Position numbers and translations under genes: made by a program
Assembly: GCA_038150265.1 (NCBI GenBank)
Contig: JAYOTF010000027.1
Location: 1 to 44,271 of the forward strand
Direction of reading: 5' to 3'
Length of the DNA: 44,271 nt
DNA from: Deltaproteobacteria bacterium
GTDB lineage: Bacteria; SAR324; NAC60-12
Shown here: in pieces, positions 1-27,814 of the stretch
How positions within the stretch are numbered: the first letter of the stretch is position 1
Layout of the letters: the number at the start of each line of letters is the position of its first letter
Notes under the pieces: model-generated
Databases searched by the model: none
What the model saw: only the letters and a program-made list of their open reading frames with translations
What the model was told of the DNA's origin: nothing

Positions 1-121
1 GTAGAGATTTGTAAGTTTAAGCATCATTCTTGAGTAGAGGTCGGGCGAGGCTAAGGGGAGGGCAGACGCAGTGGTGGGCTGAGACGAGCTCGGGGGGCAG
101 CAATCGGGGAGCAGAGTGGGG

Positions 122-177
122 GCTTGACGGAACGGTGACGGATCCTGAACACAACCTGAACGCGGGGGCGATAGGGT
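122..177 (+). promoter_or_regulatory. Putative PhoB-type (Pho box) array plus -10 element
   Basis: Four 7-mers at exact 11-bp period (GCTTGAC 122, CGGTGAC 133, CCTGAAC 144, CCTGAAC 155), then 10 bp, then TAGGGT (172-177); upstream of a phosphatase-like gene. Confidence 0.6.
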
Positions 178-212
178 ATCTGCTTTTTGAAACCCTCTAC
201 CTTGGAGAAGTT

Positions 213-2381
213 GTGAAAAAGGTCATGATTCCGCTGATTTCCGGTGTGGTGGCGCTCTCGGCGTCCACTGGACATGCGCAAAGCTTCAACCGCCTCGCGT
301 CCTTTGCGACCAACCACAACCTTCCGGCTGGAATGGATCCGCTGAGTGAGACTTCGGCAGAGATCATCACCGCCACGAAGGATGGACAGATGCTGATCTA
401 CTCCGACAGCCCCCTTGGTGGCGTGGGGATGGTGGACATCCGCAACCCATCCAATCCACAGGCCGCCGGCTTCCTCAGCCTGGATGGGGAACCCACCTCT
501 GTGACAACCGCAGGCCGCTACGTGCTGGCTGCCGTGAACACGTCCCCGAGCTTCACGGAGGTCTCCGGATACCTCGCCATCATTGATCCGCAGACGAAGC
601 AGGTGGTGGGGCGCTGCGAGCTTTCCGGGCAGCCGGACTCGACGGCCGTGTCTCCCGACGGTCGCTTCCTGGCCGTGGCCATTGAAAATGAGCGCGACGA
701 AGACCTGGGAGACGGTGGAATCCCGCAAAACGCTCCTGGAAACGTGACCATCTTCCCCCTCGTCAATGACCGTCCGGACTGTGCCCGGGTGCGCGTGGTG
801 GACGTGACCGGGCTGGCCGACATCGCGCCTTCGGATCCGGAACCCGAGTTTGTGGACTTCAACTCCCGCAACGAGATCGTCGTCTCCATGCAGGAGAACA
901 ATCACATCGCCGTCATTGATGCCGCGTCTGGACGCGTCGTCTCTCACTTCTCTGCCGGACAGGTCAACCTGCGCAACGTGGACCTGGAGGAAGAAGGCGC
1001 CCTGACGTTTGATGGGGTGCAGAACAACCGCCTTCGCGAGCCCGACGCGGTCCACTGGCTGGACGACAACCGCATCCTCGCGGCCAACGAAGGAGACTGG
1101 AACGGCGGCGCCCGGGGCTTCACCATCTACAGCAAGCAGGGCCAGGAGCTGTATGAGGCGGGGCTCGACTTCGAGTACCGCGCTGCCATGGCGGGGCACT
1201 ACCCGGAGAAGCGCTCTGGCAACAAGGGCATTGAGCCGGAAGGCCTGGAAGTGGCGACCTTCAATGGGCAGACCTACCTGTTTGTGCTCTCCGAGCGCGG
1301 CTCCCTCGTGGGCGTGTACCGCGACACCAAGGGCGCTCCCGAGTTTGTGCAACTGCTGCCTTCGGGGATCTCTCCGGAAGGCGCCCTTGCGATTCCGGGC
1401 CGGAACCTGCTCGTGACCGCCAACGAGACGGACCTGGGTCCAGATGGAGGCGTCCGGGCACATGTGATGATCTATGGCCTGAGCGCCAGCGAGCCGAACT
1501 ACCCGCAGCTGATGTCTCGCATGGAGCAGGGCCGACCGATTGGTTGGGGCGCGCTCTCTGGCCTGACGGCTGACCCGCAGAAGCCGGGCATCCTCTATGC
1601 GGTCAATGACAGCTTCTACCGGATGCAGCCCACCATCTTCACCATTGATGCGAACCAGAAGCCGGCCCGCATCATTGCGGCCACACCGGTCACCCGCGAC
1701 GGGCAGCCCGCCCAGAAGCTGGACCTGGAAGGCATTGCTGCTGATGGCAAGGGGGGCTTCTGGCTCGCCTCCGAAGGCCGGACGGACCGCCTCATTCCGC
1801 ATGCCCTCTATCACGTGGACAGCAAGGGCCGGATCCGCACCGAGATTCCGTTTCCAAAGGAACTCCTCAGCGTGGAAAAGCGCTATGGCGCCGAGGGCAT
1901 CACCGTTGTGGGCGATACCCTCTGGATTGCCATTCAGCGCAGCTGGGCCAATGACCCCCAGGACCTCGTCAAGCTGGTTTCGCTCAACACCAGGACCGGA
2001 GAGTGGGGCGCCGTCTTCTATCCGACAGAGTCCGCCAGCACGGGCTGGGTCGGCCTCTCGGAGATCACCGCCTACAACGGAAACGTCTATGTGGTGGAGC
2101 GGGACAACCAGATCGGTGAAGCCGCTCGCATCAAGCGCCTCTACCGGATTGCCGGGGAAGACCTGAACCCGCTGCCCCTCGAAGGCAACAAGTTCTACCT
2201 CGTCCGCAAGGAGCTGGTCCGCGACTTCATTCCCGACCTCAAGGCCCTCAACGGCTTTGTGGTCGACAAGGTGGAAGGCTTCACCGTGGATGCGGCTGGA
2301 AACGGCTACGTTGTGACCGACAACGACGGCGTGGACGACAGCTCCGGAGAGACCTACTTCTTCTCCATCGGCAACCTCTAA
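213..2381 (+). CDS. Secreted alkaline-phosphatase-like protein (N-terminal beta-propeller plus C-terminal esterase-like-activity-of-phytase domain)
   Basis: GTG at 213 after GGAGA; signal peptide (..ASTGHA/QS); repeated EPE/EPD/EG propeller motifs; C-terminal LSGL, LDLEG, EG(I/F)T and DNDG motifs of the phytase-like family. Confidence 0.75.
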   Translation: MKKVMIPLISGVVALSASTGHAQSFNRLASFATNHNLPAGMDPLSETSAEIITATKDGQMLIYSDSPLGGVGMVDIRNPSNPQAAGFLSLDGEPTSVTTAGRYVLAAVNTSPSFTEVSGYLAIIDPQTKQVVGRCELSGQPDSTAVSPDGRFLAVAIENERDEDLGDGGIPQNAPGNVTIFPLVNDRPDCARVRVVDVTGLADIAPSDPEPEFVDFNSRNEIVVSMQENNHIAVIDAASGRVVSHFSAGQVNLRNVDLEEEGALTFDGVQNNRLREPDAVHWLDDNRILAANEGDWNGGARGFTIYSKQGQELYEAGLDFEYRAAMAGHYPEKRSGNKGIEPEGLEVATFNGQTYLFVLSERGSLVGVYRDTKGAPEFVQLLPSGISPEGALAIPGRNLLVTANETDLGPDGGVRAHVMIYGLSASEPNYPQLMSRMEQGRPIGWGALSGLTADPQKPGILYAVNDSFYRMQPTIFTIDANQKPARIIAATPVTRDGQPAQKLDLEGIAADGKGGFWLASEGRTDRLIPHALYHVDSKGRIRTEIPFPKELLSVEKRYGAEGITVVGDTLWIAIQRSWANDPQDLVKLVSLNTRTGEWGAVFYPTESASTGWVGLSEITAYNGNVYVVERDNQIGEAARIKRLYRIAGEDLNPLPLEGNKFYLVRKELVRDFIPDLKALNGFVVDKVEGFTVDAAGNGYVVTDNDGVDDSSGETYFFSIGNL

Positions 2382-2512: not shown

Positions 2513-2568
2513 CTCTCAGGGAATCTTCATGCGGCGCTAACGAAGGCTGAAAACTCCTTCGGCATGCT
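2513..2568 (+). promoter_or_regulatory. Putative Pho box array plus -10 element
   Basis: CTCTCAG/TCTTCAT/CGCTAAC/GCTGAAA at 11-bp period (2513, 2524, 2535, 2546), then 10 bp, then CATGCT; same geometry as 122-177. Confidence 0.5.
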
Positions 2569-2624
2569 ACTTCCGAAAAGGTGGACCTGCTCCCTCAACG
2601 CCCCCTCACAGCCACGGATTTGTT

Positions 2625-3446
2625 TTGAATGCACCAACCCGCCCTCATCCTTCCCGCGAGCCCTCCCGCAACCAGTACCGTACCGTTTGTGTGTCTGACT
2701 TTCACCTGGGCGCCCGCGGCTGCAAGGCGGAGCGGCTCTGCAACTTCCTCAAGCAAACGCAGTGCGATCGGCTCTACCTGGTAGGAGACATCATTGACAT
2801 CGAGAAGCTCCAGCGCCGCATCTACTGGCCCCAGGAGCACTCGAACGTCATCCGGCGGGTGCTGACGATGGCCAAGCGTGGAACGGAGGTGATCTACATC
2901 CTCGGCAACCACGATGAGGCCATCAAGCAGTGGCTTCACTATCACCCGAAGCTGGGGAACGTCGAGATCCGGAGCCAGGCGGTTCATGAAGGCCTCGATG
3001 GGCGCAGGTTCCTGGTCATCCACGGCGACATCTTTGACGGCATTGTGCAGGTGCAGCGGTGGCTTTACTGGGTGGGCGACCGGGCCTACGACCTGGCGCT
3101 GTTCATCAATGACACCCTCAATTGGGTCCGGGAACGCTGTGGCCTGGCCCACTGGCCGATCAGCCGCTTCCTGAAGATGCAGGTCAAGTCCGCCGTCAAC
3201 TACCTCACCGAGTTTGAGTCAACGATGGCCAGGTACTGCAAGAAGCGCCAACTCGACGGGGTCATTTGCGGACACATCCACCATCCGGAGATCCGGGAAA
3301 TTGACGGCATCGCCTACATGAATGATGGAGACTGGGTGGAGTCCTGCAGCGCCCTCGTGGAAACCCTGGACGGCCGCTGGGAGATCCTGCACCTCAACCA
3401 GGAGCAGGCGCTGGCTCCCTCCCGGCCATGGGCGGAGGCGGCATGA
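2625..3446 (+). CDS. plcP: LpxH-like metallophosphoesterase, PlcP-type phospholipase C
   Basis: SDFHLG, GDIID, GNHD, HGD, GHIH and NDGDWVES motifs; ATGA-coupled to a GT4 gene as in plcP-agt loci. Confidence 0.75.
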   Translation: MNAPTRPHPSREPSRNQYRTVCVSDFHLGARGCKAERLCNFLKQTQCDRLYLVGDIIDIEKLQRRIYWPQEHSNVIRRVLTMAKRGTEVIYILGNHDEAIKQWLHYHPKLGNVEIRSQAVHEGLDGRRFLVIHGDIFDGIVQVQRWLYWVGDRAYDLALFINDTLNWVRERCGLAHWPISRFLKMQVKSAVNYLTEFESTMARYCKKRQLDGVICGHIHHPEIREIDGIAYMNDGDWVESCSALVETLDGRWEILHLNQEQALAPSRPWAEAA

Positions 3447-4498
3447 GGCTCCGACGCTTTGCCCTGGTCACCGATGCCTGGCACCCGCAAACCAATGGGG
3501 TGGTCAACACGCTGTCCCGATTCGTCCGGCACCTGGAGTCCAATGGGGTGGAGGTTCAGGTGCTCTCCCCGCAAGATGGCCCCACGGTGCCTCTGCCTTC
3601 GTATCCGGAAATCCGGGTGGCCACCCAGCCGTGGAAGGCGGTGAGCCGCCTCCAGCACTTTGAGCCTGATGCGGTTCATGTTGCCACAGAAGGTCCACTT
3701 GGCATGTGGGTCCGGGGGTGGCTGGGACGCCACCGCCTGCGCTTCACCACCAGCTTCCACACCCGCTTTCCAGAGTACCTCAGCGCCCGGTTGCCGGTGC
3801 CGCTGGAGTGGGGGTACAAGCTGGAACGCTGGTTTCACGGAGGCGCGGAGCACACGCTGGTGGGAACGCAATCGCTCATTCGAGAGCTACGGGCCCAGCA
3901 TGTGGGCAAGCACCTCGTCCACTGGCCCCGAGGCGTCGATACGGATCGCTTCCACCCGCGCTTCCGAGACACGAACCTTTACCGGGGCTCCGGACCCAAG
4001 TGGCTGTACGTGGGACGGGTGGCGGTGGAGAAGAGCATTGAGGACTTCCTGACGCTGGACCTGCCTGGAAGGAAGATTGTGGTGGGAGACGGCCCTTCTC
4101 GTGAGGAGCTGCAGCACCGCTTTCCCGACGTCGAGTGGCGGGGCTGGCAGCACGGAGAGGACCTGTCTCGGCACTTCGCCAGTGCGGACTGCTTCGTGTT
4201 TCCCTCCCGGACCGAAACCTTTGGCAACGTCATCCTGGAGGCCATGGCGTCGGGGCTTCCGGTCGCATCGGTTCCGGCGCCAGGCCCCATTGACCTGATT
4301 GAGGAAGGCGTGAACGGCGCGCTGAGCGACCACCTCCGCGAGGCCTGTCTGCGAGCAGTGAAGAGTTCGCGGAAGCGCGCCCGTGCCACCGCCCAGCGGT
4401 TCAGCTGGAAGGTCAGCCACGAGCTGTTCCAGCTGCACCTGGTGCCGCTGCGTCCCGCAGACCCGCTCTCTCACCCTCAGGAGGCGTTCGCGTCCTAG
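3443..4498 (+). CDS. GT4 glycosyltransferase, Agt-like diacylglycerol glucosyl/glucuronosyl transferase
   Basis: TDAWHPQTNGVV, HVATEGPLG, FHTRFPEY, VGRVAVEK and FPSRTETFGNVILEAMASG motifs; ATG overlaps the plcP stop. Confidence 0.85.
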   Translation: MRLRRFALVTDAWHPQTNGVVNTLSRFVRHLESNGVEVQVLSPQDGPTVPLPSYPEIRVATQPWKAVSRLQHFEPDAVHVATEGPLGMWVRGWLGRHRLRFTTSFHTRFPEYLSARLPVPLEWGYKLERWFHGGAEHTLVGTQSLIRELRAQHVGKHLVHWPRGVDTDRFHPRFRDTNLYRGSGPKWLYVGRVAVEKSIEDFLTLDLPGRKIVVGDGPSREELQHRFPDVEWRGWQHGEDLSRHFASADCFVFPSRTETFGNVILEAMASGLPVASVPAPGPIDLIEEGVNGALSDHLREACLRAVKSSRKRARATAQRFSWKVSHELFQLHLVPLRPADPLSHPQEAFAS

Positions 4499-5382
4499 GC
4501 GTCTCGTTGCAGCATCGGCTGTCCCATCCAGATCCGCTGGCCTTCCTGAAGGGTCTCACAGAAACGCAACCCTGGTGTGCTGAAGACGAGGATGGTGGAG
4601 CCGTGTTCAAACCAGCCCATCTCCTCGCCCTTCTGGAAGGAGGCGGTGCAGGGGAGGTGGTTGGGGCCCTGATACCGCAGGTTGAGCGGAACATCGAGGC
4701 AGCGGAACCGCATGCTCGCGACCAGGATGGCGGCCACGGGCACCAGCGTCAGGGACTCGGAGGTCCCTTTCAGCGTCAGGTGCACAATGGCCCGCTCGTT
4801 TTTGCAAAAGAGCCGCTCCACCCGCTTGAGGGCGATCGGGTTGACGTTCCAGGTGTCTCCGGAAATGTAGGTGATGCCCTGGACCTCGCAGTCGGCAGGC
4901 GCATGAAAGCGGTGGTAGAAGCTGGACTTGAGCCGCAGGGTGAGGAAGTTTCCGTTTGCGTAACGCGCCACCAGTTCCGGATCCAGCAGCAGGTCCTGAA
5001 GCGAGTACGGAAAGCCCTTCGCCTGAAACACCTGGGTCCCTTCGATGCGACCATGAGCGCCAACGATGGCGTCACAGGGACTGGTCAGGTGCTGGGGCGC
5101 AGGGTCAATGGTCCGGGCCCCGTCCTTCAGCTCGCGGATGAAGCAGTCGTGGAGGCTGGTGAAGTGGTCCTTCCGGGCCTCCTCAAGGTTGAGGTCATCG
5201 GCAAAGAACTTCCAGAGCGCGAGGGACACGTCCCGGACCAGTGGCTGCTCCAGCTTGCTGAACCACCCCATGAAGTGGGTGAGCAGCTGGCGGGGAATGC
5301 GGTTGGTCAGCAAAAAGTTCAGGTCTTCCTGTTGGAAGATCCGGTCCTTGAGCGTGGGGGCCGAAGCGAGTTCAGGATTCAT
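4495..5382 (-). CDS. psd: Phosphatidylserine decarboxylase family proenzyme
   Basis: SPCDA, YHRFHAP, LFCKNER motifs and FEHGST self-cleavage site (canonical LGST); GAGG RBS. Confidence 0.85.
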   Translation of the reverse strand: MNPELASAPTLKDRIFQQEDLNFLLTNRIPRQLLTHFMGWFSKLEQPLVRDVSLALWKFFADDLNLEEARKDHFTSLHDCFIRELKDGARTIDPAPQHLTSPCDAIVGAHGRIEGTQVFQAKGFPYSLQDLLLDPELVARYANGNFLTLRLKSSFYHRFHAPADCEVQGITYISGDTWNVNPIALKRVERLFCKNERAIVHLTLKGTSESLTLVPVAAILVASMRFRCLDVPLNLRYQGPNHLPCTASFQKGEEMGWFEHGSTILVFSTPGLRFCETLQEGQRIWMGQPMLQRDA

Positions 5383-5407
5383 TCAACCTCTTTCAGAGTC
5401 AGTCAGC

Positions 5408-7057
5408 ATGGAACTGTTTGCCGTTTTGGCGGCTGGGGCCTTTGCCTCCGCCGCGTCGTTTCCCCGACTTCGTCAGCGCCTGGAGCTTTCCCGGGCCAAG
5501 CATCCCTCGTTGCGGGGGCATGCCAGGATGTCGCGGCAACTGGCAAAGTGGATTCCGTATTGGGAGTATGACGAGTCGCAGTTCTTCAGCAGCGACGCGG
5601 CCCCTGTGGACGTGGTGAAGCGCCGGCGCGAGGGGTTCCGGAAGCTGGAGGCGCTCTACCAGCAGCGCTTCGCCCAGACGGCCGAGCAGACGGCCGAAGC
5701 GGCTCCCGGCATCTCGGATCTGCAGTTCACCAGCACCTACCGGGTGCCGTTTCAGTTCAGCCGCTACGTCCGGGAACGCCTCAGGAGTGGTTCGTTCCTG
5801 CAGGCGTCTTCTGGGGTTCAGGTGACGGATCTGGACGGCAACTCCTTTTACGACCTCACCGGCGCCTATGGCGTCAATGTCTTCGGGTACGACTTTTACA
5901 AGGCGTGTGTGGACCAGGGCATTGAGCAGACCCGGGAGCTGGGTCCGGTGCTGGGTCCGTATCACCCGGTGGTGGCCGACAACGTGGAGCGGCTGAAGGC
6001 CATTTCCGGAATGGACGAGGTGTCGTTTCACATGTCCGGAACCGAAGCGGTGATGCAGGCCGTTCGGCTGGCGCGCTACCACACGGGCCGTCAGAAGCTG
6101 GTTCGCTTCTGTGGCGCCTACCACGGCTGGTGGGATGACGTGCAGCCGGGTGTGGGCAACCCGCATCCGGTCAAGGACACCTACACGCTCAAGGACATGG
6201 ACCCGGACACGCTGAAGGTGCTCCGGACCCGCAACGACCTGGCCTGTGTGCTGGTGAATCCGCTGCAGGCCCTGCACCCGAACATGAACGCGCCGGGAGA
6301 CTCGATGCTGGTCAGCAGCGACCGCTGGGCGCACTTTGACAAGGCCGCTTATGCGGAGTGGCTGCAGGAGCTGCGGCAGGTCTGCACGGAGCGAGGCATT
6401 GCCCTCATTCTGGATGAAGTCTTTGTCGGGTTCCGGCTGGCGTACCGGGGCGCCCAGGAGTTCTTTGGCATCTCGGCCGACCTGGTGACCTACGGCAAGA
6501 CCCTCGGCGGTGGCCTTCCGGTGGGAGCCGTGTGTGGAAAGAGTCGCTGGATGAAGCGCTTCCGGAAGGACCGTCCGGCTGACATCTGCTTTGCACGCGG
6601 GACGTTCAATTCCCACCCGTATGTGATGGGGGCCATGAACGCATTCCTCCAGCAGGTGGCACAGCCGCCGTTTCAGCAGGCGTATCAGGAAGCGGAGGCG
6701 CTGTGGAACCGCCGCATCCGGACCCTGAACGACCGCCTGCGCGCGGAGGGCCTGCCGGTGGACGTGGTGAACCTGATGTCGATTGGCACCCTCCGCTACA
6801 CCCACCCGTCCCGCTACAACTGGATGCTCCAGTACTACCTCCGGGCCGAGGGGCTCGCTCTGAGCTGGGTGGGAACGGGGCGCCTGATCTTCAGTCACAA
6901 CTACGATGAGGAGACGTTTGCCGAGGTCTGTGATCGCTTGGTGCGAGCAGCCCGGAAGATGGAGCAGGATGGCTGGTGGTGGCGTGCTCCGGAGCTGACC
7001 AACCAGTCGATCAAGCGTCAGGTGCTCCGGGAGCTGCTCACGGCCCGCTTCTTCTGA
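5408..7057 (+). CDS. Class III PLP-dependent enzyme (GSA-aminomutase-like) with hydrophobic N-terminus and long N-terminal extension
   Basis: SGTEA, GAYHG, LDEVFVGFR, TYGKTLGGGLPVGA (PLP Lys) and GTFNSHP; start placed at ATG 5408 because the upstream frame overlaps psd. Confidence 0.85.
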   Translation: MELFAVLAAGAFASAASFPRLRQRLELSRAKHPSLRGHARMSRQLAKWIPYWEYDESQFFSSDAAPVDVVKRRREGFRKLEALYQQRFAQTAEQTAEAAPGISDLQFTSTYRVPFQFSRYVRERLRSGSFLQASSGVQVTDLDGNSFYDLTGAYGVNVFGYDFYKACVDQGIEQTRELGPVLGPYHPVVADNVERLKAISGMDEVSFHMSGTEAVMQAVRLARYHTGRQKLVRFCGAYHGWWDDVQPGVGNPHPVKDTYTLKDMDPDTLKVLRTRNDLACVLVNPLQALHPNMNAPGDSMLVSSDRWAHFDKAAYAEWLQELRQVCTERGIALILDEVFVGFRLAYRGAQEFFGISADLVTYGKTLGGGLPVGAVCGKSRWMKRFRKDRPADICFARGTFNSHPYVMGAMNAFLQQVAQPPFQQAYQEAEALWNRRIRTLNDRLRAEGLPVDVVNLMSIGTLRYTHPSRYNWMLQYYLRAEGLALSWVGTGRLIFSHNYDEETFAEVCDRLVRAARKMEQDGWWWRAPELTNQSIKRQVLRELLTARFF

Positions 7058-7159
7058 AATCCTGCCAGGTGCGTTACGGTAGCAAGACTCTATTGGACGA
7101 AGATTGCGGCCGCGTTAGGGTTTCTGAAGGAAGGAAGGGGTGGGGCAGCAGAAGGGGCG

Positions 7160-7369
7160 CTAAGGCTGCCGGACGTAGATGTCGAGGACCATCACATAGA
7201 CATTGGGGTGCTCCACGTCATCGAAGATGACCCGTGTCACCTGGTAGCCCACGCTTTCGTAAATGAACTGGCTGCCGTCCACCAGGTCGTCTTGAGGCAG
7301 GTCAATGAGGGTGCCGTCAGGCTCTCCGAGCATTCCATGGATCCGGACACGGATGGTTTCGTCACTCAT
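7160..7369 (-). CDS. Small acidic hypothetical protein (69 aa)
   Basis: ATG 7369 with GGAG RBS, 40 bp after ppk2; protein-like composition MSDETIRVRIHG... Confidence 0.6.
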   Translation of the reverse strand: MSDETIRVRIHGMLGEPDGTLIDLPQDDLVDGSQFIYESVGYQVTRVIFDDVEHPNVYVMVLDIYVRQP

Positions 7370-7409
7370 TGAGTCTCCAGGGGGGGCGTGGGCGTCACAC
7401 GGTTCCAGG

Positions 7410-8234
7410 TCAGTAAAGTTCAGGAATGTAGATGTGCTCCTCCTTGGGAGGGCGCTCGTATCCGGTGCTCTTGGGGCGCTTCGGAATCTTGACCTCTTCG
7501 GGCAGCTTCTCATCGTGCGGGAGCTTGGTGAGGAGGTGGGAGATGCAGTTGAGCCGGGCCTTGAGCTTGTCGTCGGCCTCCACGGTGTACCAGGGGGCCC
7601 ACGGTGTGTTGGAGAAGCTGAACATCTCATCCTTGGCCTTGGAGTAGTCCTCCCAGCGCTCAATGGAGGCCAGGTCCATGGGGCTGAGCTTCCAGCGCTT
7701 GAGCGGATTCCGGGCCCGCTCCTGAAAGCGAGCCTCCTGCTCCTCGTCGCTGACGGAGAACCAGTACTTGATGAGGTGGATTCCGGAACGGGTCAGCATG
7801 GCCTCAAACTCCGGGCAGCTGCGGGCAAACTCCTGGTACTCCTCTTCGGTGCAGAAGCCCATCACGCGCTCCACTCCGGCCCGGTTGTACCAACTGCGAT
7901 CAAAGATGACGATCTCGCCAGCAGCAGGAAGGTGCTCGACGTAGCGCTGGAAGTACCACTGCGACTGCTCCCGGTTGGAAGGAGACGGCAGGGCCACCAC
8001 CCGGCAGCTCCGTGGGTTCAGCGGCTCCGTCAGGCGCTTGATCACTCCACCCTTTCCTGCGGCATCCCGGCCTTCAAAGATCAGCACCACCTTGAGCCCA
8101 CGCTTCCGGACGGTGTGCTGCATCTGCACCAGGTCGTGAAAGAGCTTCTTCAGCTCCTTCTCATACTCCTTTTTCGAAAGCTTGGGGCGGACCTCCTCGG
8201 CAGGGGGGACGTCTTCTTTCTTCTTTTTAGACAT
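7410..8234 (-). CDS. ppk2: Polyphosphate kinase 2
   Basis: FEGRDAAGKGG Walker A, FDRSWYNRAGVE, KRWKLSPMD. Confidence 0.95.
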   Translation of the reverse strand: MSKKKKEDVPPAEEVRPKLSKKEYEKELKKLFHDLVQMQHTVRKRGLKVVLIFEGRDAAGKGGVIKRLTEPLNPRSCRVVALPSPSNREQSQWYFQRYVEHLPAAGEIVIFDRSWYNRAGVERVMGFCTEEEYQEFARSCPEFEAMLTRSGIHLIKYWFSVSDEEQEARFQERARNPLKRWKLSPMDLASIERWEDYSKAKDEMFSFSNTPWAPWYTVEADDKLKARLNCISHLLTKLPHDEKLPEEVKIPKRPKSTGYERPPKEEHIYIPELY

Positions 8235-8246
8235 AAACAGGCCTCC

Positions 8247-9983
8247 TTAGAGCTGCGGGACAGGGTCGGATGCGGCAACCCCTGCTCGCGCAATCGGCTT
8301 TGACAAACGGCGGGTGTGGTAGAAAACGCGCCTCAGGCCTTCCGCCAGGTCTGACTCGAACCGGAAGGACTGCAGGCGTTGAATGCCCTGATGCGGATCG
8401 TCCAGCACCACCCGGGCGATGCGACGCTTGCCGTCCCGCTTGAGGTCCAGGACCTGCTGAGCGAGAGCCGCATCGTGAGTGGCCAGGGCGTTCAGGGCCT
8501 GGTTCAGGGCCTCCAGCGTGAACCCATGGGCTTCCACCAGCTTGGACTGGGCCTCTGGCGAAAGCTGGATCCCCTGGTGCAGGCGTTCCAAGCCTAACAT
8601 CGTGAAGACGTTTTCGACAAGGTCCCCAATGCTCTCAAGCTCATTGGCGGCACTGGCAATCTGGAGCAGCTCATCGGTCTGCTTGTCGGTGAAGGTGAGC
8701 TGACTGAGCAGGGAGAGGTCCGTCATGAGCGTCGCATGCAGCGCGTCGACTTCCTTGTCCCGGCTTTCCAGTTGGCGGAGGTCTTCAGTGGTTCCGGAAT
8801 AGACGGCGCTCAGGGTGCTGCCATAAATTTCCTCCACCAGTCGCCCGAGCTTCAGGACCTTGAGGCGAACGACATCAAGTGCCAGAGACGGGGTCTTCAG
8901 CAGCACCGGGTCCAGGGTGGGCTGTCGCTCGCTCCGTGGGCGTGGTGGAATGAACCTGCGGATCACCAGTCCCACCGGGGTGGTCAGGCCAATGAAGACC
9001 ACTGCCATGCCGACGTTGAAGAGCGTGTGGGCGTTTGCCAGCTGACGGGGCAGGATGTTCATGGCGGCAGGGTCTCCTCCGGGAACCGGAGGCGTGATCT
9101 CTCCCACCAGCCAGGCAATCCACGGAATGGCAGGAAGGAGCGCGACACTCCAGGTCAAGTTGAAGAAGGTATGCGCTGCTGCAACCTGCCGGGCCTCTGG
9201 AGGCTGCCCCAAAGAGGCCAGCACCGCCGTGACACAGGTCCCGACGTTTGCCCCGAGGATGAGGGCAATGCCCCCTTCCAGGGGAATGAGGCCCTGCGAC
9301 GCCAGGGCAATGACGATGCCCATTGTGGCCGAGCTGGACTGCACCAGAGCGGTGAAGGCGGCCGCGGTCATCAGCCCCAAAAACGGATTGGCCATCTGGG
9401 CCATCAGGTCCACAAACGGCTGGTAGCTCCGGAGCGGCCGCATGGCGTCACTCATGACGCTCATCCCCCAGAAGATCAGGCCCAGTCCGAGCAGCGCCCG
9501 CCCAATCTGCTTCACGTGGTCCTTGTTGCCGATCATGTCGAGCAGCACGCCGGCCGCCACCATCACCATGGCCAGCTTGGTCACCTTGAAGGCAATGATC
9601 TGAGCCGTGATGGTGGTGCCAATGTTGGCCCCCAGGATGATGCCAAGGGACTGCGGGAGCGACATCAGCCCGGCTGAGACGAAGCTCACCAGCAGCACCG
9701 TCGTGATGGAGCTGGACTGCAGAACGGCTGTGATGACGGCGCCGGTGAACAGTCCCATGATGCGGTTGTTGCTCAGCTTGGCGAGGATGTCCTTCATCCG
9801 GTCGCCAGCAATCACACGGAGGGCCTGGCTAATCGTCTCCATTCCGTAGAGGAACAGGGCCAGTCCTCCGACCAGTCCCATTCCCAGCTGCAGCCACTCC
9901 AGTTCGCCAGAAGCGTTGGTGGCTCCCCAAAGAGCCGTTGGCAGGGTCAGGCCCAAGCCGACCACCCATTTGTTTTGCTTCAA
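8247..9983 (-). CDS. Na+/phosphate cotransporter family protein with C-terminal PhoU-like domains
   Basis: Two QSSS repeats, GANIGTT/GANVGT, ELESIGD PhoU-like motif; TTG start after AGGAGG, overlapping the cobS stop. Confidence 0.9.
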   Translation of the reverse strand: MKQNKWVVGLGLTLPTALWGATNASGELEWLQLGMGLVGGLALFLYGMETISQALRVIAGDRMKDILAKLSNNRIMGLFTGAVITAVLQSSSITTVLLVSFVSAGLMSLPQSLGIILGANIGTTITAQIIAFKVTKLAMVMVAAGVLLDMIGNKDHVKQIGRALLGLGLIFWGMSVMSDAMRPLRSYQPFVDLMAQMANPFLGLMTAAAFTALVQSSSATMGIVIALASQGLIPLEGGIALILGANVGTCVTAVLASLGQPPEARQVAAAHTFFNLTWSVALLPAIPWIAWLVGEITPPVPGGDPAAMNILPRQLANAHTLFNVGMAVVFIGLTTPVGLVIRRFIPPRPRSERQPTLDPVLLKTPSLALDVVRLKVLKLGRLVEEIYGSTLSAVYSGTTEDLRQLESRDKEVDALHATLMTDLSLLSQLTFTDKQTDELLQIASAANELESIGDLVENVFTMLGLERLHQGIQLSPEAQSKLVEAHGFTLEALNQALNALATHDAALAQQVLDLKRDGKRRIARVVLDDPHQGIQRLQSFRFESDLAEGLRRVFYHTRRLSKPIARAGVAASDPVPQL

Positions 9984-10738
9984 GTCCCTCCTACAAGCAG
10001 AAGATAGATGCCCAGCTCGGCAAGTTGCTGCACCCCACCCAGGCAATCCCCGGTGATGCCCCCCAGACGCTGACGCAGGTACCGGATGCCCAGACGCTGC
10101 AGGATCCAGGTCAGGCCCAGGATCCCCAGCCCCCAGAGGCCCCATCCGATCAGAAGCGGCAGGGCTCCGGTGAGGAAGGCAAACCCGAGGGCTCCCGGGT
10201 GGAGGCGTGACAGCCCCGCTGCTTTCCCCTGCGTGCCGGAACGAAGGTACGGTAAATGAGAAGAGACTTCAATCGCAAGAAAACGGCTCCAGGCGTGTCC
10301 GGCCACCCAGACTCCCCAAACGTGAGGAGCATCGAGGGCCATCAGGCTGGCTGCCTTGAGCAGCAGGAGGAGGATCAGCCCCACCACGCCGTAGGTTCCC
10401 AGCCGGGAATCCTTCATGATGTCGAGGATGCGTTGCGGGGTCCAGCCTCCGCCGAATCCGTCGCAGGTGTCGGCAAATCCGTCTTCGTGCAGAGCGCCAG
10501 TCAGCAAGAGGCCGCTGGTCAGCCCCAGCAGCGTGGCGAGGGGAAGCCCGAGGGGCCCGGCCGCCAGCGCCGCCACGAGTCCAGAGAGCCCCCCAACGAT
10601 CCAGCCAACGAGGGGAAGGTACCGGGAGACGGCCGTGATGTCGATCCGTTCATGAACGGAGAAGGGGGGAGGCAGGCGGGTGTAGTACCCAAGGGCCCCC
10701 CGGAAGAGGTGCCACTCTCGTGACGCGTCAGGCGTCAT
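9980..10738 (-). CDS. cobS: Adenosylcobinamide-GDP ribazoletransferase (cobalamin synthase)
   Basis: TRLP, TGALHEDGFADTCDGFGG, IMKDSRLGTYG, GGITGDCLG. Confidence 0.95.
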   Translation of the reverse strand: MTPDASREWHLFRGALGYYTRLPPPFSVHERIDITAVSRYLPLVGWIVGGLSGLVAALAAGPLGLPLATLLGLTSGLLLTGALHEDGFADTCDGFGGGWTPQRILDIMKDSRLGTYGVVGLILLLLLKAASLMALDAPHVWGVWVAGHAWSRFLAIEVSSHLPYLRSGTQGKAAGLSRLHPGALGFAFLTGALPLLIGWGLWGLGILGLTWILQRLGIRYLRQRLGGITGDCLGGVQQLAELGIYLLLVGGT

Positions 10739-11771
10739 CACGCGAGCTGACGCCGGCAGACTCGAAGGACGCCATCTCGTTGAGGAAGAGGACCGCAGAC
10801 TGCACCAGCGGAAAGGCCACCGCCGCGCCCGTGCCTTCTCCGAGCCGCATGTCGAGCTGCAGCACCGGAGTGAGCCCAAGGAACTCCAGCATCCGCCGGT
10901 GGCCCTGTTCATCCGACTGGTGGCAGCAGAGGGTGTAGTCCCGAACCTCCGGGTGCATCCGAAAGGCAACAAGGAAGGCGGCCGTGGCAATGAAGCCATC
11001 GAGCAAGATCAGCATCTGCTGCTGAGCGGCTTCCAGCAGGGCCCCGGTCATCATCGCCATCTCGGCGCCCCCAAACGTCTGGAGCACCTCAAGGGGCGTC
11101 CGGGCGTCCGGATGCTGCTCCAGAGCGGCTGCGAGGACCTGCCGTTTGTGGGCGAGTCCGGAATCGTCCAGGCCGGTCCCCCGGCCCACGCAGTCTTCGA
11201 GCGGGAAGCCGGTCAGGCGCTGCATGATGGCCGCTGCTGCCGAAGTGTTCCCAATGCCCATTTCGCCGAAGCCGATGACGTTGGTGCCCTGCTGGGCCGC
11301 TTGCTGCACCAGCGCTTGTCCCTCCCGGAGGGCCGTGGTGACTTCTTCAGGGGTGAGGGCCGGCTCCTGCTGAAAGTTCCGGGTGCCTGCACAGACCTTC
11401 CGGCGGATCAGGTCCGGGTGATCCGGAAGCGGGTGCTTCACCCCGGCGTCCACCACCTGGAGGCGGATCTGGTGCTGGCGGCAGAACACGTTGATGGCGG
11501 CGCCCCCAGCGAGGAAGTTCAGGACCATCTGTGCCGTGACTTCCTGGGGATAGGGGCTGACTCCGGACTCAACGATGCCGTGGTCACCAGCAAACACAAG
11601 GAAGGCCGGGTTCCGGAGCGTGGGGTGGAGGGTGCGTTGAATCTGTCCCACCTGAAGCGCAATCGACTCCAGCGTTCCCAAGGCTCCCGGGGGCTTGGTC
11701 TTTTGGTCAATGCGCTGCTGAAGGGCTTCGGTGAGCGTGGAAGGGAGAGGGGACAGCTTCCATTCAGGCAT
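10728..11771 (-). CDS. cobT: Nicotinate-nucleotide--dimethylbenzimidazole phosphoribosyltransferase
   Basis: KTKPPGALG, FAGDHG, GEMGIGNT, MRLGEGTGA, EMASF. Confidence 0.95.
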   Translation of the reverse strand: MPEWKLSPLPSTLTEALQQRIDQKTKPPGALGTLESIALQVGQIQRTLHPTLRNPAFLVFAGDHGIVESGVSPYPQEVTAQMVLNFLAGGAAINVFCRQHQIRLQVVDAGVKHPLPDHPDLIRRKVCAGTRNFQQEPALTPEEVTTALREGQALVQQAAQQGTNVIGFGEMGIGNTSAAAAIMQRLTGFPLEDCVGRGTGLDDSGLAHKRQVLAAALEQHPDARTPLEVLQTFGGAEMAMMTGALLEAAQQQMLILLDGFIATAAFLVAFRMHPEVRDYTLCCHQSDEQGHRRMLEFLGLTPVLQLDMRLGEGTGAAVAFPLVQSAVLFLNEMASFESAGVSSRDDA

Positions 11772-13114: not shown

Positions 13115-13873
13115 TCAGATGCGGGCGCCGCCACTGATTTCAATGACTTCCCCGGTGAAGTAGTCGTTTTTGAGGATGAACAGCACCCCGTCGGAGATTT
13201 CCCGGGGCTCGGCAAAGCGCTTGAGGGGAACCTGTTCGGTAAAGATGGATTTGACCTCTTCCTTGAGCGAGAGGACCATTTCAGTGGCCGTGAAGCCGGG
13301 CGCCACCGCGGCGGCGCGGATGCCGTAGGGAGCCAGTTCCTTGGCCCAGAGGACGGCCATGGCGGCCACTCCGGCCTTGGCTGCCGAGTAGTTGCTTTGC
13401 CCAAAGTTGCCGTGCCGGGCGATGCTGGAGATGTTGACGAGCACCCCGGGCTTCTTCAGCTTCACCAGCTGGGCGGCCGCCTCACGACCACACAGAAAGA
13501 CGCCCGTCAGGTTGACGTCAATCACGGCCTGCCACTTCTCGAGGGGGAACTTGCGGATCTCGCCATTCTTTTCCCGGACCAGCAGGTTGTCACGCAGAAT
13601 GCCGGCATTCTGGATGCTGGCATCAAGGGTTCCGAAATCGGCGACGACTTGCTCGTAGAGCTGCTCCACGTCGGCTTCGTCAGCAACATTGACGGCGTAG
13701 CTGCGGGCTTCGGCTCCGGTGGCCGTGACCTCTGCGAGGGCGTTGGCGAGGGCGTCTTCGTTGCGGTCGACCAGGGCGAGGCGGGCGCCTTCTGCGGCAC
13801 AGTCCAGCGCAAACTGCTTGCCCAGTCCCTGAGCGGCACCGGTGATGACGATTACTTTGTTGGTGAGGTCCAT
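13115..13873 (-). CDS. SDR oxidoreductase (3-oxoacyl-ACP/CoA reductase-like)
   Basis: TGAAQGLG, NAGILRD, GNFGQSNYSAAK. Confidence 0.9.
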   Translation of the reverse strand: MDLTNKVIVITGAAQGLGKQFALDCAAEGARLALVDRNEDALANALAEVTATGAEARSYAVNVADEADVEQLYEQVVADFGTLDASIQNAGILRDNLLVREKNGEIRKFPLEKWQAVIDVNLTGVFLCGREAAAQLVKLKKPGVLVNISSIARHGNFGQSNYSAAKAGVAAMAVLWAKELAPYGIRAAAVAPGFTATEMVLSLKEEVKSIFTEQVPLKRFAEPREISDGVLFILKNDYFTGEVIEISGGARI

Positions 13874-27197: not shown

Positions 27198-27758
27198 TCA
27201 GGCGGCTGCGTTGCGGGTGGCGCGGGAGATCTGGATCAGGGGTTGGGGCCACTGCAGGTAATCCTGCCACTGCGCATCCGGAATCCGCAGGGGGAGGGTC
27301 TTCGCAATGGTCACCATCTGCCAGTAATTGGGTTCAATCGGGTGGGTGAGCGGGCGGAGGAACCGAGACCCCTTGTCGAGGTTGCAGGGGTAGCAGGCGG
27401 CCACCACATTGTCCCAGCTCGTGGCGCCTCCCTTGCTCTTGGGGATGACGTGGTCAATCGTCAGGTGCTCGGTCGCATAGTGCTTCCCGCAGTACTGACA
27501 GTGGAAGCGATCCCGGAGGTAGATGTTGCGACGGGTGAAGTGCACGCGGCTGGACCGCCGGACGTACCGGGTCATCACGACCACGCTGGGCATGGGCATG
27601 GAAAACCGTTGCGACCGACAGGGCCAGTCGGGGTAGGTCCGGAGGATGCTGACCTTTTCCAGGAAGTACGCCTTGACGGCTTGTTGCCAGGTCAAAACAC
27701 TCAGAGGTGCCAGGGTGAGGGGCTGATGGTCCTGATTAAGGAGCAATACATCGCTCAT
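27198..27758 (-). CDS. HNH endonuclease
   Basis: RD.FHCQYCG, TIDHVIPKSKGG, NVVAACYPCNLDK. Confidence 0.9.
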   Translation of the reverse strand: MSDVLLLNQDHQPLTLAPLSVLTWQQAVKAYFLEKVSILRTYPDWPCRSQRFSMPMPSVVVMTRYVRRSSRVHFTRRNIYLRDRFHCQYCGKHYATEHLTIDHVIPKSKGGATSWDNVVAACYPCNLDKGSRFLRPLTHPIEPNYWQMVTIAKTLPLRIPDAQWQDYLQWPQPLIQISRATRNAAA

Positions 27759-27814
27759 TGGCACGTACTCGCGGAAAAGGCCACATCCAAGGGGAGGAGA
27801 CGCCTCCCCAGCGG

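Follow-up and report, generated by a model that had tools for sequence, protein, structure and literature searches.

On balance, we consider it somewhat probable that four genes of the window (the whole 44,271-nt stretch of DNA analysed) belong to a five-gene membrane-lipid head-group pathway, conserved but uncharacterised, that would extend the PlcP-Agt system and yield an amine-bearing, phosphorus-free glycolipid. The four genes encode a PlcP-like metallophosphoesterase, an Agt-like GT4 glycosyltransferase, a PSD-family pyruvoyl decarboxylase (PSD2) and a class III PLP aminotransferase (Table 1); the fifth would encode an Mpo1-like membrane protein. Judged by homology, the PSD2/aminotransferase pair is kept in hundreds of bacterial species. 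We found no description of this module in the literature.

Table 1. Features of the locus, with window coordinates
Feature	Position	Strand	Evidence and context
Phytase-like / choice-of-anchor I protein	30..2381	+	PF13449, E 8.7e-59; phosphate-scavenging context
Candidate regulatory block upstream of plcP, conserved with G052	2515..2600	+	Weak TTCAYG-N5-CTAACG-N5-TGAAAA array; GAAGG...CCTTC inverted repeat
plcP-like calcineurin-like metallophosphoesterase	2625..3446	+	PF00149, E 8e-12; PF12850, E 6e-13
Agt-like GT4 glycosyltransferase	3428..4498	+	PF13439, PF13692, PF00534
PSD2, PSD-family pyruvoyl decarboxylase paralogue	4495..5382	-	PF02666, 177.8 bits
Divergent PSD2/aminotransferase gap, 25 bp	5383..5407		Sequence read
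Class III PLP aminotransferase, 549 aa, predicted membrane-anchored	5408..7057	+	PF00202; ATG at 5408
PPK2, polyphosphate kinase 2	7410..8234	-	PF03976, 351.8 bits; TIGR03707, 368.7 bits, above cut-off; phosphate-metabolism context
Na/Pi cotransporter with PhoU domain	8247..10145	-	PF02690, PF01895; phosphate-metabolism context

Gene organization

The plcP-like product is a putative phospholipase C that would release diacylglycerol, and its matches to the LpxH family are weak. The GT4 reading frame, for which no NCBIfam equivalog scored above its cut-off, starts at 3428 or at 3443, where an in-frame ATG overlaps the plcP stop codon as ATGA. This overlap makes plausible the translational coupling that a first-pass annotation of this DNA had asserted. 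The TAG stop codons of PSD2 and GT4 share the palindrome CTAG at 4495-4498, giving the 4-bp convergent overlap that the same annotation had described. It had, however, treated psd as a member of the plcP-agt transcription unit, which is incorrect: the PSD2 gene lies opposite in strand to plcP-GT4, cannot be co-transcribed with them, and diverges from the aminotransferase gene. With a gap of only 25 bp between these divergent genes, their promoters must be located inside adjoining coding sequence.

Phosphate-related genes (phytase-like, PPK2 and Na/Pi-PhoU) flank the locus both in the window and in a sister genome. The phytase-like gene 5′ of plcP is kept at the equivalent position in both sister genomes (91% identity in G052 and 78% in G051), and the PPK2 gene is retained in G052. 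The Na/Pi-PhoU reading frame overlaps cobS, and this gene probably has its real start downstream of the cobS stop codon (9980). The cobT and cobS genes are 3 kb distant.

Conservation of the module

Of 80 loci taken from other species and spanning several phyla, 79 had a PSD2 match. The PSD2 gene was divergent in 75 loci and on the same strand directly downstream in three; in one it lay on the opposite strand, about 0.9 kb further downstream, and the sole miss ends at a contig edge. Within flanks of up to 8 kb, an Mpo1-like protein was present in 77 of the 80 loci, a GT4 in 62 and plcP in 13. Of 88 genomes from the phylum to which the window belongs, 7 encode the aminotransferase. GT4, PSD2 and aminotransferase are together in all four other same-phylum loci inspected, three of which also have plcP, while the Mpo1-like gene is adjacent in two of the four and encoded somewhere in 7/7 carrier genomes. 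The linkage, whose loss would have spoken against the first-pass reading, is therefore strongly conserved; that reading missed the Mpo1-like third partner.

Fused forms tie these activities together. In one 1151-aa protein (P0124), a GT4 (residues 22-400), the aminotransferase (461-946) and an Mpo1-like part (978-1150) are joined. All seven complete metagenome fused loci encode the aminotransferase and Mpo1-like protein in one ORF that immediately follows a GT4, and in three of them plcP lies upstream. PSD2 is missing from 14/14 fused-form metagenome loci and is therefore not required by every version of the pathway. Among the best matches listed in a search for longer homologues, 1120-1300-aa proteins join the aminotransferase (40-46% identity) via a hydrophobic stretch to a GT2-like glycosyltransferase; where given, their source labels indicate Euglena, Bigelowiella and marine-eukaryote transcriptomes (Atlas score 0.98).

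Related loci also carry a PmtA-like methyltransferase (24 loci; 129 bits, under cut-off) and an MprF-flippase-like protein (12 loci; 206 bits, covering positions 2-317 of the 841-position MprF model), and both accompany the module in some Alphaproteobacteria. The recurrent neighbour clusters of these loci contained no polysaccharide export or polymerase genes.

PSD2 is a second, divergent decarboxylase

By sequence comparison, PSD2 is a paralogue and not the housekeeping PSD. The genome has two PSD genes, the housekeeping copy adjoining ftsH, so that one objection to the first-pass reading, a psd that is the genome's only one, falls away. The ftsH-side PSD matches E. coli Psd with 171.9 bits over residues 7-249, and PSD2 with 92.6 bits over residues 26-203. 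Two PSD genes were likewise present in 5/5 other carrier genomes tested, and a PSD2 profile scored orthologues at 458-560 bits (n = 5) versus 143-190 bits for type I housekeeping PSDs (n = 4).

The residues for self-cleavage and catalysis are kept in the PSD2 alignment (D90, H144, H147 and the G-S-T cleavage motif). The alignment of its N-terminal region to that of E. coli Psd runs from residue 11, and its C-terminal third is too divergent for phmmer alignment. The phosphate-contact Tyr137 is replaced by Arg in 74/74 PSD2 members, and Ser166 by Asn in 73/74. The presence of a second PSD with this Arg/Asn pocket beside the housekeeping enzyme suggests a different substrate. An Arg at the Tyr137 position is also found in 15% of ordinary PSDs, according to the available text of the E. 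coli Psd paper (PMC7952604); consequently, an anionic, possibly phosphate-bearing substrate, such as phosphatidylserine, may apply to PSD2 as well.

The aminotransferase and its Mpo1-like partner

The first-pass annotation had described a 549-aa class III PLP enzyme with a hydrophobic N-terminus, an extension of over 100 aa relative to HemL, and no other hem genes nearby. The reading frame bears this out, and no hem genes were found among the 38 window ORFs scanned. Homologues are 540-566 aa long, alignable from residue 1, with K364 and D336 invariant. The N-terminus is Ala-rich and hydrophobic (MELFAVLAAGAFASAASF), followed by basic residues, and the predicted structure has a helix at residues 3-30, though a simple Kyte-Doolittle scan of the N-terminus found no 19-residue window of at least 1.6. 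Alignment to the HemL model begins at residue 126, which is model position 32; the extension is therefore real, together with inserts, but its N-terminal part is about 93 aa. Taking sequence and predicted model together, the enzyme consists of a hydrophobic helix at the N-terminus, a stretch of about 100 aa specific to the family, and a catalytic domain that resembles GSAM and MycA AMT.

Profile search (201 bits) and fold comparison (Foldseek with the predicted model, E 1.9e-28, TM 0.80 on target) both rank the MycA AMT domain 6KFM first among solved relatives. Sugar C-6′ aminotransferases are also among the structural relatives: NeoB has Foldseek rank 17, and C-6′ entries appear in the PDB profile search. 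By score, the enzyme is not HemL. It matches the hemL model TIGR00713 with 174 bits against a cut-off of 527, while a true hemL (602 bits) is encoded on contig C5, and the grouping with HemL that would have undercut the first-pass reading is thus not observed.

The third conserved partner is a small, helical, His-rich Mpo1-like membrane protein. In this genome it is encoded on contig C1, which is not the window's contig, and in a sister genome its gene lies at a distance of about 16 kb. Yeast Mpo1/DUF962 (PF06127) is a dioxygenase that depends on Fe(II) and acts on 2-hydroxy fatty acids. The Mpo1-like protein scores 23 bits against PF06127, under the cut-off of 24, and a search with its predicted model gave no relative of solved structure (the best match had Z 6.5 over 48 residues). 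Its invariant residues are H16, H20, H29, H66, H175, E70, E86 and D176; with a marginal score and no structural relative, it is solely these His, Asp and Glu residues that suggest an oxidase role.

Phosphate regulation

We did not reproduce the Pho-box-like array that had been placed before plcP. The perfect TTCACA-N5-TTAACA-N5-TTAACA array of this genome's pstS promoter (18/18) is unique genome-wide; the best pstS-type matches before plcP and between psd and the PLP gene reach only 12/18, and about 0.23 such matches are expected by chance per region, as estimated from genome-wide counts and a region scan. An E. coli-type Pho box is likewise absent here (7/14 and 9/14). The conserved block upstream of plcP is a candidate regulatory site by its sequence: its array scores 12/18 here and 13/18 in G052, and it yielded no Rfam family and no sigma-70-type promoter. 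Across the psd2 start of related loci, an E. coli-type Pho box of at least 11/14 occurs in 29 of 75, compared to 0.75 expected from shuffles; as these did not keep the invariant CAT of the psd2 start codon in place, the first half-site is inflated.

Proposed pathway and alternatives

In the proposed pathway, PlcP would split phospholipids to diacylglycerol, the established function of a family to which orthology here is presumed, and GT4 would glycosylate the diacylglycerol; by analogy to Agt, the sugar is probably a hexose or uronic acid. The Mpo1-like membrane protein may then oxidise the sugar head group to a carbonyl. The membrane-anchored aminotransferase would turn this carbonyl into an amine, and membrane-bound PSD2 would strip a carboxylate adjacent to an amine on a lipid head group; both chemistries are known for their families, while the aminotransferase's substrate and the order of amination before decarboxylation are what we infer. 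Such a route would end in a zwitterionic or cationic glycolipid that bears an amine, lacks phosphorus and in some lineages may be N-methylated by the PmtA-like enzyme and flipped by the MprF-flippase-like protein. If the head group bears a 2-hydroxy-acid unit, it could proceed from 2-hydroxy acid to 2-oxo acid, 2-amino acid and amine, and the last three steps would each be their family's usual chemistry. In a pyranosyl uronic acid, an Agt product, the carbon beside the carboxylate holds the ring oxygen and cannot be aminated. Therefore, the simple scheme requires a sugar form other than the known Agt products.

The first-pass annotation had offered two readings, a phosphorus-free aminolipid and the salvage of phosphate from head groups. 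The former is favoured by the fusions of aminotransferase to glycosyltransferases and Mpo1-like protein and by the PmtA-like and MprF-flippase-like neighbours, all of which salvage leaves unexplained; nothing specific points to the latter. In a salvage route, PSD2 would make PE from residual phosphatidylserine, the PLP enzyme would remove the ethanolamine nitrogen, and Pi would be released from PlcP products. In its favour, phosphoethanolamine phospho-lyases are found among class III PLP enzymes, PSD2 has an anion-binding Arg at its phosphate-contact position, and the locus sits amid phosphate-scavenging genes. However, neither the 60 best PDB matches nor the 25 best NCBIfam matches listed include a named phospho-lyase, and a soluble head-group lyase would need no membrane anchor. 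We consider this route quite unlikely, whether the PLP enzyme were to act as a phospho-lyase (on PE or phosphoethanolamine) or as a deaminating transaminase. Similarly doubtful is a transfer of amine from lipid to lipid, where PSD2 would be a phosphate-regulated, ordinary PS decarboxylase that never acts on the glycolipid, and PE would be the amine donor to an oxidised glycolipid. It would fit the retention of every catalytic residue and the phosphate-site Arg in PSD2, the prevailing head-to-head pairing (75/80 loci), the terminal amines typical for class III enzymes, and the fused forms without a nearby PSD2, which could draw on housekeeping PE. Yet a housekeeping PSD is already present in 6/6 genomes tested (five carriers and the window's own), the altered PSD2 pocket suggests another substrate, and we know of no precedent for a lipid amine donor.

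The module could instead aminate an envelope glycoconjugate that is not a lipid or not a glycerolipid (lipopolysaccharide, capsule or a polyprenol-linked sugar), with plcP nearby through shared phosphate regulation only. GT4 and GT2 enzymes are mostly polysaccharide builders, the amino sugars of surface polymers are ordinarily made by oxidising a sugar and then transaminating it, and plcP is within 8 kb in just 13 of the 80 loci. We nonetheless judge this unlikely, as PSD-family enzymes with an N-terminal region alignable to that of E. coli Psd have membrane lipids as substrates, lipid enzymes (PmtA-like and MprF-flippase-like) occur as neighbours, plcP is directly upstream in fused forms and in the window's phylum, and polysaccharide export and polymerase genes are absent from the recurrent neighbour clusters. 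HemL models are the top NCBIfam matches of the aminotransferase and public sources name its relatives glutamate-1-semialdehyde 2,1-aminomutase, as would befit a HemL paralogue that makes 5-aminolevulinate beside an ordinary housekeeping psd by chance. The sub-cut-off score, the true hemL, the second psd and the pairing conserved across several phyla (79/80 loci) refute that reading, which we find barely conceivable.

Comparison with known systems

The PlcP-Agt renovation of lipids under phosphate starvation is described in Sinorhizobium, Agrobacterium, SAR11, Phaeobacter, Pseudomonas, Methylosinus and Burkholderia (available text of PMC4796936, PMC9239053 and PMC13700237). Like that system, the window has a metallophosphoesterase gene overlapping a GT4 gene in phosphate-scavenging surroundings, and diacylglycerol and then glycolipid would be expected if orthology holds. 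Unlike it, the plcP-GT4 pair is here accompanied by a PSD paralogue, an anchored aminotransferase and an Mpo1-like protein, none of which is mentioned in the plcP-context section of PMC4796936 or the available text of PMC9239053 and PMC13700237.

The aminotransferase's closest solved relative, the AMT domain of mycosubtilin synthase MycA (6KFM, 6KFU), transaminates a carbonyl of a large, carrier-held, lipid-like substrate. MycA AMT is a PKS/NRPS domain acting on a beta-ketoacyl thioester, whereas the window enzyme is standalone, is without a carrier-protein partner, and has in addition a predicted membrane anchor and about 100 aa of sequence specific to its family. The C-6′ aminotransferases of aminoglycoside pathways (NeoB 6CBL; 7LLD, 9AU3) belong to the same GSAM-like class III subgroup and aminate a sugar aldehyde produced by a partner oxidase; they differ in being soluble enzymes of secondary metabolism with non-lipid substrates and at most about 25% identity to the window enzyme.

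PSD2 shares with E. coli Psd (7CNW, 6L06; available text of PMC7952604) the PF02666 fold, Asp90, His144, His147, the self-cleavage Ser and G-S-T, but is an extra copy with Arg for Tyr137 and Asn for Ser166, and is paired with an aminotransferase. The Mpo1-like protein resembles yeast Mpo1 as a small, helical, His-rich membrane protein with a marginal PF06127 match (23 vs 24 bits); unlike Mpo1, it is joined to an aminotransferase in some lineages, and its activity here is putative.

The BtaA/BtaB pathway to the betaine lipid DGTS makes a phosphorus-free, nitrogen-bearing lipid and is found downstream of plcP (PMC4796936, section 13). The product proposed here would be of the same kind, with PmtA and MprF as accessory analogues, although the locus has no BtaA or BtaB homologue. 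BtaA/BtaB chemistry transfers an aminocarboxypropyl group from S-adenosylmethionine, whereas the pathway proposed here would employ glycosyl transfer, transamination and decarboxylation.

Conserved linkage of the aminotransferase and PSD2

The 549-aa class III PLP enzyme of the window, hereafter the aminotransferase, was used in a neighbourhood survey in which one genome per species was scanned, giving at least 600 matches, of which 80 loci were retained (Burkholderiales, Rhodocyclaceae, Xanthobacteraceae, Acetobacteraceae, Steroidobacteraceae, Polyangia, Holophagales and Vicinamibacteria). The PSD-family paralogue, PSD2, lies beside the aminotransferase at 79 of the 80 loci (two matches are shortened to less than 100 aa, and the sole miss, L023, ends at a contig edge). 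The two genes are divergent at 75 loci; PSD2 is directly downstream on the same strand at three others, and at one it lies on the opposite strand, about 0.9 kb downstream. An Mpo1-like membrane protein of about 219 aa is encoded at 77/80 loci, usually convergent and just downstream. GT4 genes, which fall into three classes by their identity to the window's GT4, occur at 62/80 loci and plcP at 13/80, in flanks extending no further than 8 kb. The linkage that the first-pass annotation had singled out is therefore conserved. Culturable carriers include Variovorax sp. OV329, Parazoarcus communis SWub3 and Acidisphaera.

The aminotransferase is patchily distributed within the window's own phylum (7 of 88 genomes, 3 of 43 genera), and all seven genomes bearing it also carry an Mpo1-like gene. 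Both sister genomes (G051 and G052) share the order phytase-like, plcP, GT4, PSD2, aminotransferase; in G055 all five genes are contiguous, and in G050 a long GT4 gene is followed by PSD2, Mpo1-like and aminotransferase genes on one strand. The DNA upstream of this G050 operon is taken up by an A-rich tandem array whose units include CAAACCATCAAAGTAACACAAATACACACAATCAAAGTAAAGCAAATG. In the otherwise GC-rich G051, a very AT-rich stretch of about 200 bp lies in front of plcP; neither the window nor G052 has such a stretch there.

Gene arrangement in the window

Gene order was read from the ORF listing and profile scans of the window. The plcP-like, GT4, psd and PLP-enzyme genes follow one another as first described, with an in-frame GT4 ATG at 3443 overlapping the plcP stop (ATGA), but the psd gene sits on the opposite strand and is therefore not part of the plcP-GT4 transcript. 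It converges with the GT4 gene, their TAG stops sharing the CTAG at 4495-4498, and diverges from the aminotransferase gene across a 25-bp gap. The earlier remark that no hem genes lie nearby held for all 38 window ORFs scanned.

Coordinates of the genes and sequence features discussed
Feature	Contig or locus	Position	Strand	Remark
Phytase-like / choice-of-anchor protein	window	30-2381	+	
plcP-like calcineurin-like metallophosphoesterase	window	2625-3446	+	
GT4 glycosyltransferase	window	3428-4498	+	
PSD-family gene (PSD2)	window	4495-5382	-	
Class III PLP enzyme (aminotransferase)	window	5408-7057	+	
Small conserved ORF	window	7160-7369	-	69 aa; between aminotransferase and PPK2
PPK2	window	7410-8234	-	
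Na/Pi cotransporter with PhoU domain	window	8247-10145	-	
HNH endonuclease, stand-alone	window	27198-27764	-	
Mpo1-like gene	C1, own genome	210610-211206		2.5 kb from contig end
galT, galK, Mpo1-like and hydrolase genes	C1 (L092)	206000-212200		
pstS-type triple repeat	C22 (L119), own genome	5593-5620		upstream of pstS-like gene
pstS-like gene	C22 (L119)	5645-6682		
pstS-type dimer, exact	C7, own genome	19770-19786		
A-rich tandem array	L129 (G050)	7150-7370		
AT-rich stretch	L128 (G051)	13434-13700		

Beyond the Na/Pi transporter gene lie cobT and cobS, which may be transcribed as a single unit together with the transporter and PPK2 genes. The transporter's longest ORF runs 166 bp into the end of cobS (region 8247-10999, minus strand), so that its true start is probably downstream of 9980. 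The 69-aa ORF matches no Pfam family and has a counterpart at the same position in G052 (83% identity). The HNH endonuclease gene adjoins an aconitase gene whose 993-aa product has a long N-terminal extension, the Aconitase domain beginning at residue 171. An Rfam scan of the whole window gave no matches. Between 2300 and 7500, a sigma-70 promoter scan gave no sites, and the two terminator-like sites there were not above shuffles.

The plcP-like product has a metallophosphoesterase fold (PF00149, 46.4 bits; PF12850, 49.5 bits), and we infer from gene context that it is PlcP, the phosphate-starvation phospholipase C characterised as SMc00171 and MED193_17359. The product of the gene directly downstream has the two-domain GT4 fold expected of Agt (PF13439, PF13692 and PF00534), and all NCBIfam equivalogs score below cut-off on it (best 58 bits versus 480). 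The genome encodes one NDP-sugar dehydrogenase.

The PLP enzyme is an aminotransferase-like protein distinct from HemL

A HemL assignment was rejected: the enzyme scores 173.8-174.3 bits on TIGR00713 against an equivalog cut-off of 527.3, and a true hemL on contig C5 of the same genome scores 602 bits. It matches PF00202 with 115 bits (cut-off 30.5). The lysine K364 (in YGKTLGGG) and the aspartate D336 (in DEVF) are invariant in 20/20 aligned sequences; by homology, K364 would bind PLP and D336 would contact the pyridine nitrogen. Both motifs align with their counterpart in the mycosubtilin synthase aminotransferase (MycA AMT) domain, which is the closest solved protein by profile (201 bits versus 142 for the best GSAM) and also by fold. 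Sugar C-6' aminotransferases (NeoB and C-6' entries) appear in the same profile and fold match lists.

The best 120 database relatives are 540-566 aa long and 66-100% identical to the window's enzyme. Mean column identity in the 20-sequence alignment is 80%, including the N-terminal hydrophobic helix and the roughly 100 residues before the catalytic domain. The AlphaFold model places a long helix at residues 3-30; its confidence is moderate (pLDDT 70.7), and consequently the N-terminal family-specific region yielded no interpretable fold.

PSD2 retains its catalytic residues and has an altered pocket

PSD2 matches PF02666 above cut-off (177.8 bits). With residues numbered by alignment to 7CNW, D90, H144 and H147 are kept in all 74 members, and the G, S and T of the self-cleavage motif in 73, 72 and 72 of the 74. 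All 74 members have Arg at position 137, and 73 of the 74 have Asn at position 166; four of four housekeeping PSD copies carry Tyr137 and Ser/Thr166. According to PMC7952604, Tyr137, Ser166 and the Val167 backbone of E. coli Psd contact the phosphate, His144 contacts the carboxylate, and Arg replaces Tyr137 in 15% of PSDs. The conserved catalytic residues and cleavage motif, together with Arg137 and Asn166, suggest that PSD2 is an active decarboxylase, probably membrane-bound, with a pocket that is altered yet anion-friendly.

We also considered whether PSD2 is the ordinary housekeeping enzyme and rejected this, since it has neither Tyr137 nor Ser/Thr166 (with the caveat, from the same paper, that Arg137 occurs in 15% of PSDs) and is not the genome's sole psd. 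The second PSD gene is flanked by ftsH and an enoyl-reductase-like gene, and its product matches E. coli Psd with 171.9 bits over residues 7-249, compared with 92.6 bits over residues 26-203 for PSD2. Two PSD genes were also found in all five other carrier genomes tested. A PSD2 profile gives orthologues 458-560 bits versus 143-190 for type I housekeeping copies.

An Mpo1-like protein is the third partner

In the window's own genome, the Mpo1-like gene lies on another contig, C1. Its product reaches 23.0 bits on PF06127 (E 8.6e-5; gathering cut-off 24 bits), and its orthologues are likewise marginal, at 18-21 bits. Eight residues are invariant: His16, His20, His29, His66, His175, Glu70, Glu86 and Asp176. 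A fold search of the model (pLDDT 84.1) against 48,161 chains returned helix-hairpin matches only (best Z 6.5 over 48 residues) and no nameable relative.

On C1 the gene comes after galT and galK, of UDP-galactose metabolism, and before an alpha/beta hydrolase gene, an order that is the same in G052. There, the Mpo1-like gene lies 16.3 kb upstream of the aminotransferase on the same contig, with unrelated genes between. Because the window's contig begins at the phytase-like gene, C1 and the window's contig may adjoin on the chromosome.

Gene fusions and accessory genes

Searches among longer proteins recovered P0124 (1151 aa), which joins GT4, aminotransferase and Mpo1-like parts in one chain. 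Fourteen related metagenome loci were found, and in all seven that are complete a single ORF combining aminotransferase and Mpo1-like parts stands directly behind GT4, with plcP upstream in three. PSD2 was found in none of the 14.

Among the best matches of the same search were P0125-P0137, proteins of 1120-1300 aa whose aminotransferase part is 40-46% identical and includes the family-specific region. Where source labels are present, they name Euglena, Bigelowiella and marine-eukaryote transcriptomes. In sequence, they comprise a GT2-like domain at the N-terminus, a central region without a named family, a hydrophobic stretch and the aminotransferase; in the three examined proteins that show the stretch, a simple scan divides it into two to five segments. 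The N-terminal part gives weak GT2 Pfam matches and is placed with GT2 families by the protein atlas (score 0.98). P0125-P0137 showed neither a PSD nor an Mpo1-like part, and HMMs of PSD2, the Mpo1-like protein, GT4, the methyltransferase and two membrane proteins matched no eukaryotic fusion; comparing the Mpo1-like alignment as a profile with the Euglena fusion protein also gave no match (probability 0.2). Two distinct glycosyltransferase folds are thus joined to the same aminotransferase, which is the strongest evidence for a glycosylated substrate.

In alphaproteobacterial loci, a methyltransferase gene is coupled to GT4; it is present at 24 loci, its best NCBIfam match being the phospholipid N-methyltransferase PmtA (129 bits, under cut-off). 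Twelve loci encode a protein that matches the flippase portion of MprF (206 bits), and eight an MFS transporter. These three neighbours fit a membrane lipid bearing a free amine.

Evidence for phosphate control

E. coli-type Pho boxes (CTGTCAT-N4-CTGTCAT, at least 11/14) occur in 29 of 75 divergent regions of other species, versus 0.75 in shuffles, on the aminotransferase strand and spanning the psd2 start. At a threshold of at least 12/14, thirteen of the 75 regions qualify versus 0.05 in shuffles; in both scores, the match of the first half-site is raised by the fixed CAT with which psd2 starts. This box type is absent from the window (7/14 and 9/14).

The genome's own Pho array, TTCACA-N5-TTAACA-N5-TTAACA, lies upstream of a pstS-like gene. 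It is a perfect triple direct repeat (18/18; three TT[ACT]ACA half-sites at 11-bp spacing) and the sole such array in the 3.39-Mb genome, in which one further exact dimer is found. We take it to resemble the Pho-box type of Bacillus PhoP and cyanobacterial SphR, not that of E. coli. Both upstream of plcP and in the gap between psd and the aminotransferase gene, the best match to this array is 12/18, about the chance level; a block upstream of plcP, at 2515-2600, is conserved in G052, where it scores 13/18. The Pho-box-like array reported before plcP could not be confirmed, and phosphate control in the window consequently rests on gene context and related loci.

A proposed pathway and its alternatives

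The usual chemistries of the five families would fit together as one chain. PlcP would release diacylglycerol, GT4 would convert it into a glycolipid, the Mpo1-like protein would create a carbonyl on the glycolipid head group, the aminotransferase would turn this carbonyl into an amine, and PSD2 would remove the carboxylate neighbouring the amine. The scheme would be cleanest with a 2-hydroxy-acid unit in the head group, which would become first a 2-oxo acid, next a 2-amino acid and finally the amine; 2-hydroxy acids are the substrate type of yeast Mpo1. Agt's pyranosyl glucuronic acid has no such unit, because its C5 bears the ring oxygen.

We tentatively propose, at less than even odds, that the module makes a new class of P-free lipid. 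The head group of a glycosyl-diacylglycerol would be oxidised and transaminated, and in carriers of PSD2 it would also be decarboxylated; the product would be an amino-glycolipid, PE-like or cationic, that some lineages N-methylate to a PC-like form. Other mechanisms compete with this proposal. The genes could serve head-group salvage; among the PDB and NCBIfam matches listed for the aminotransferase, none is named as an ETNPPL-type phospho-lyase. Alternatively, PE could be the amine donor for the aminotransferase. PSD2 could act on true phosphatidylserine or on a new amino-acid-type head group. The modified molecule could also be a non-lipid glycoconjugate, against which the PmtA-like and MprF-flippase-like neighbours speak.

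The open-access literature searched holds no account of this gene set and no link of the PSD paralogue, the aminotransferase or DUF962 to plcP-agt; term searches within PMC9239053, PMC13700237 and PMC4796919 gave no relevant mention. 'Aminoglycolipid' appears as an unidentified polar lipid in many taxonomic descriptions. If the amino-glycolipid proposal is true, it would supply the genetic basis for these lipids, and the GT2-like-aminotransferase fusion of Euglena, Bigelowiella and other protists would be the eukaryotic counterpart. The five genes, currently mis-annotated as HemL, Psd or hypothetical, would gain names, and the route would reach at least 600 species genomes.

Exchanging phospholipids for P-free lipids is a major survival route of ocean, soil and host-associated bacteria under phosphate scarcity, and lipid replacement alters sensitivity to antibiotics and phages. 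The surrogates known so far comprise glycolipids, either neutral or acidic, along with betaine lipids and acyl-amino-acid lipids; to these a conserved amine-glycolipid route, if true, would add a PE-like or cationic surrogate.
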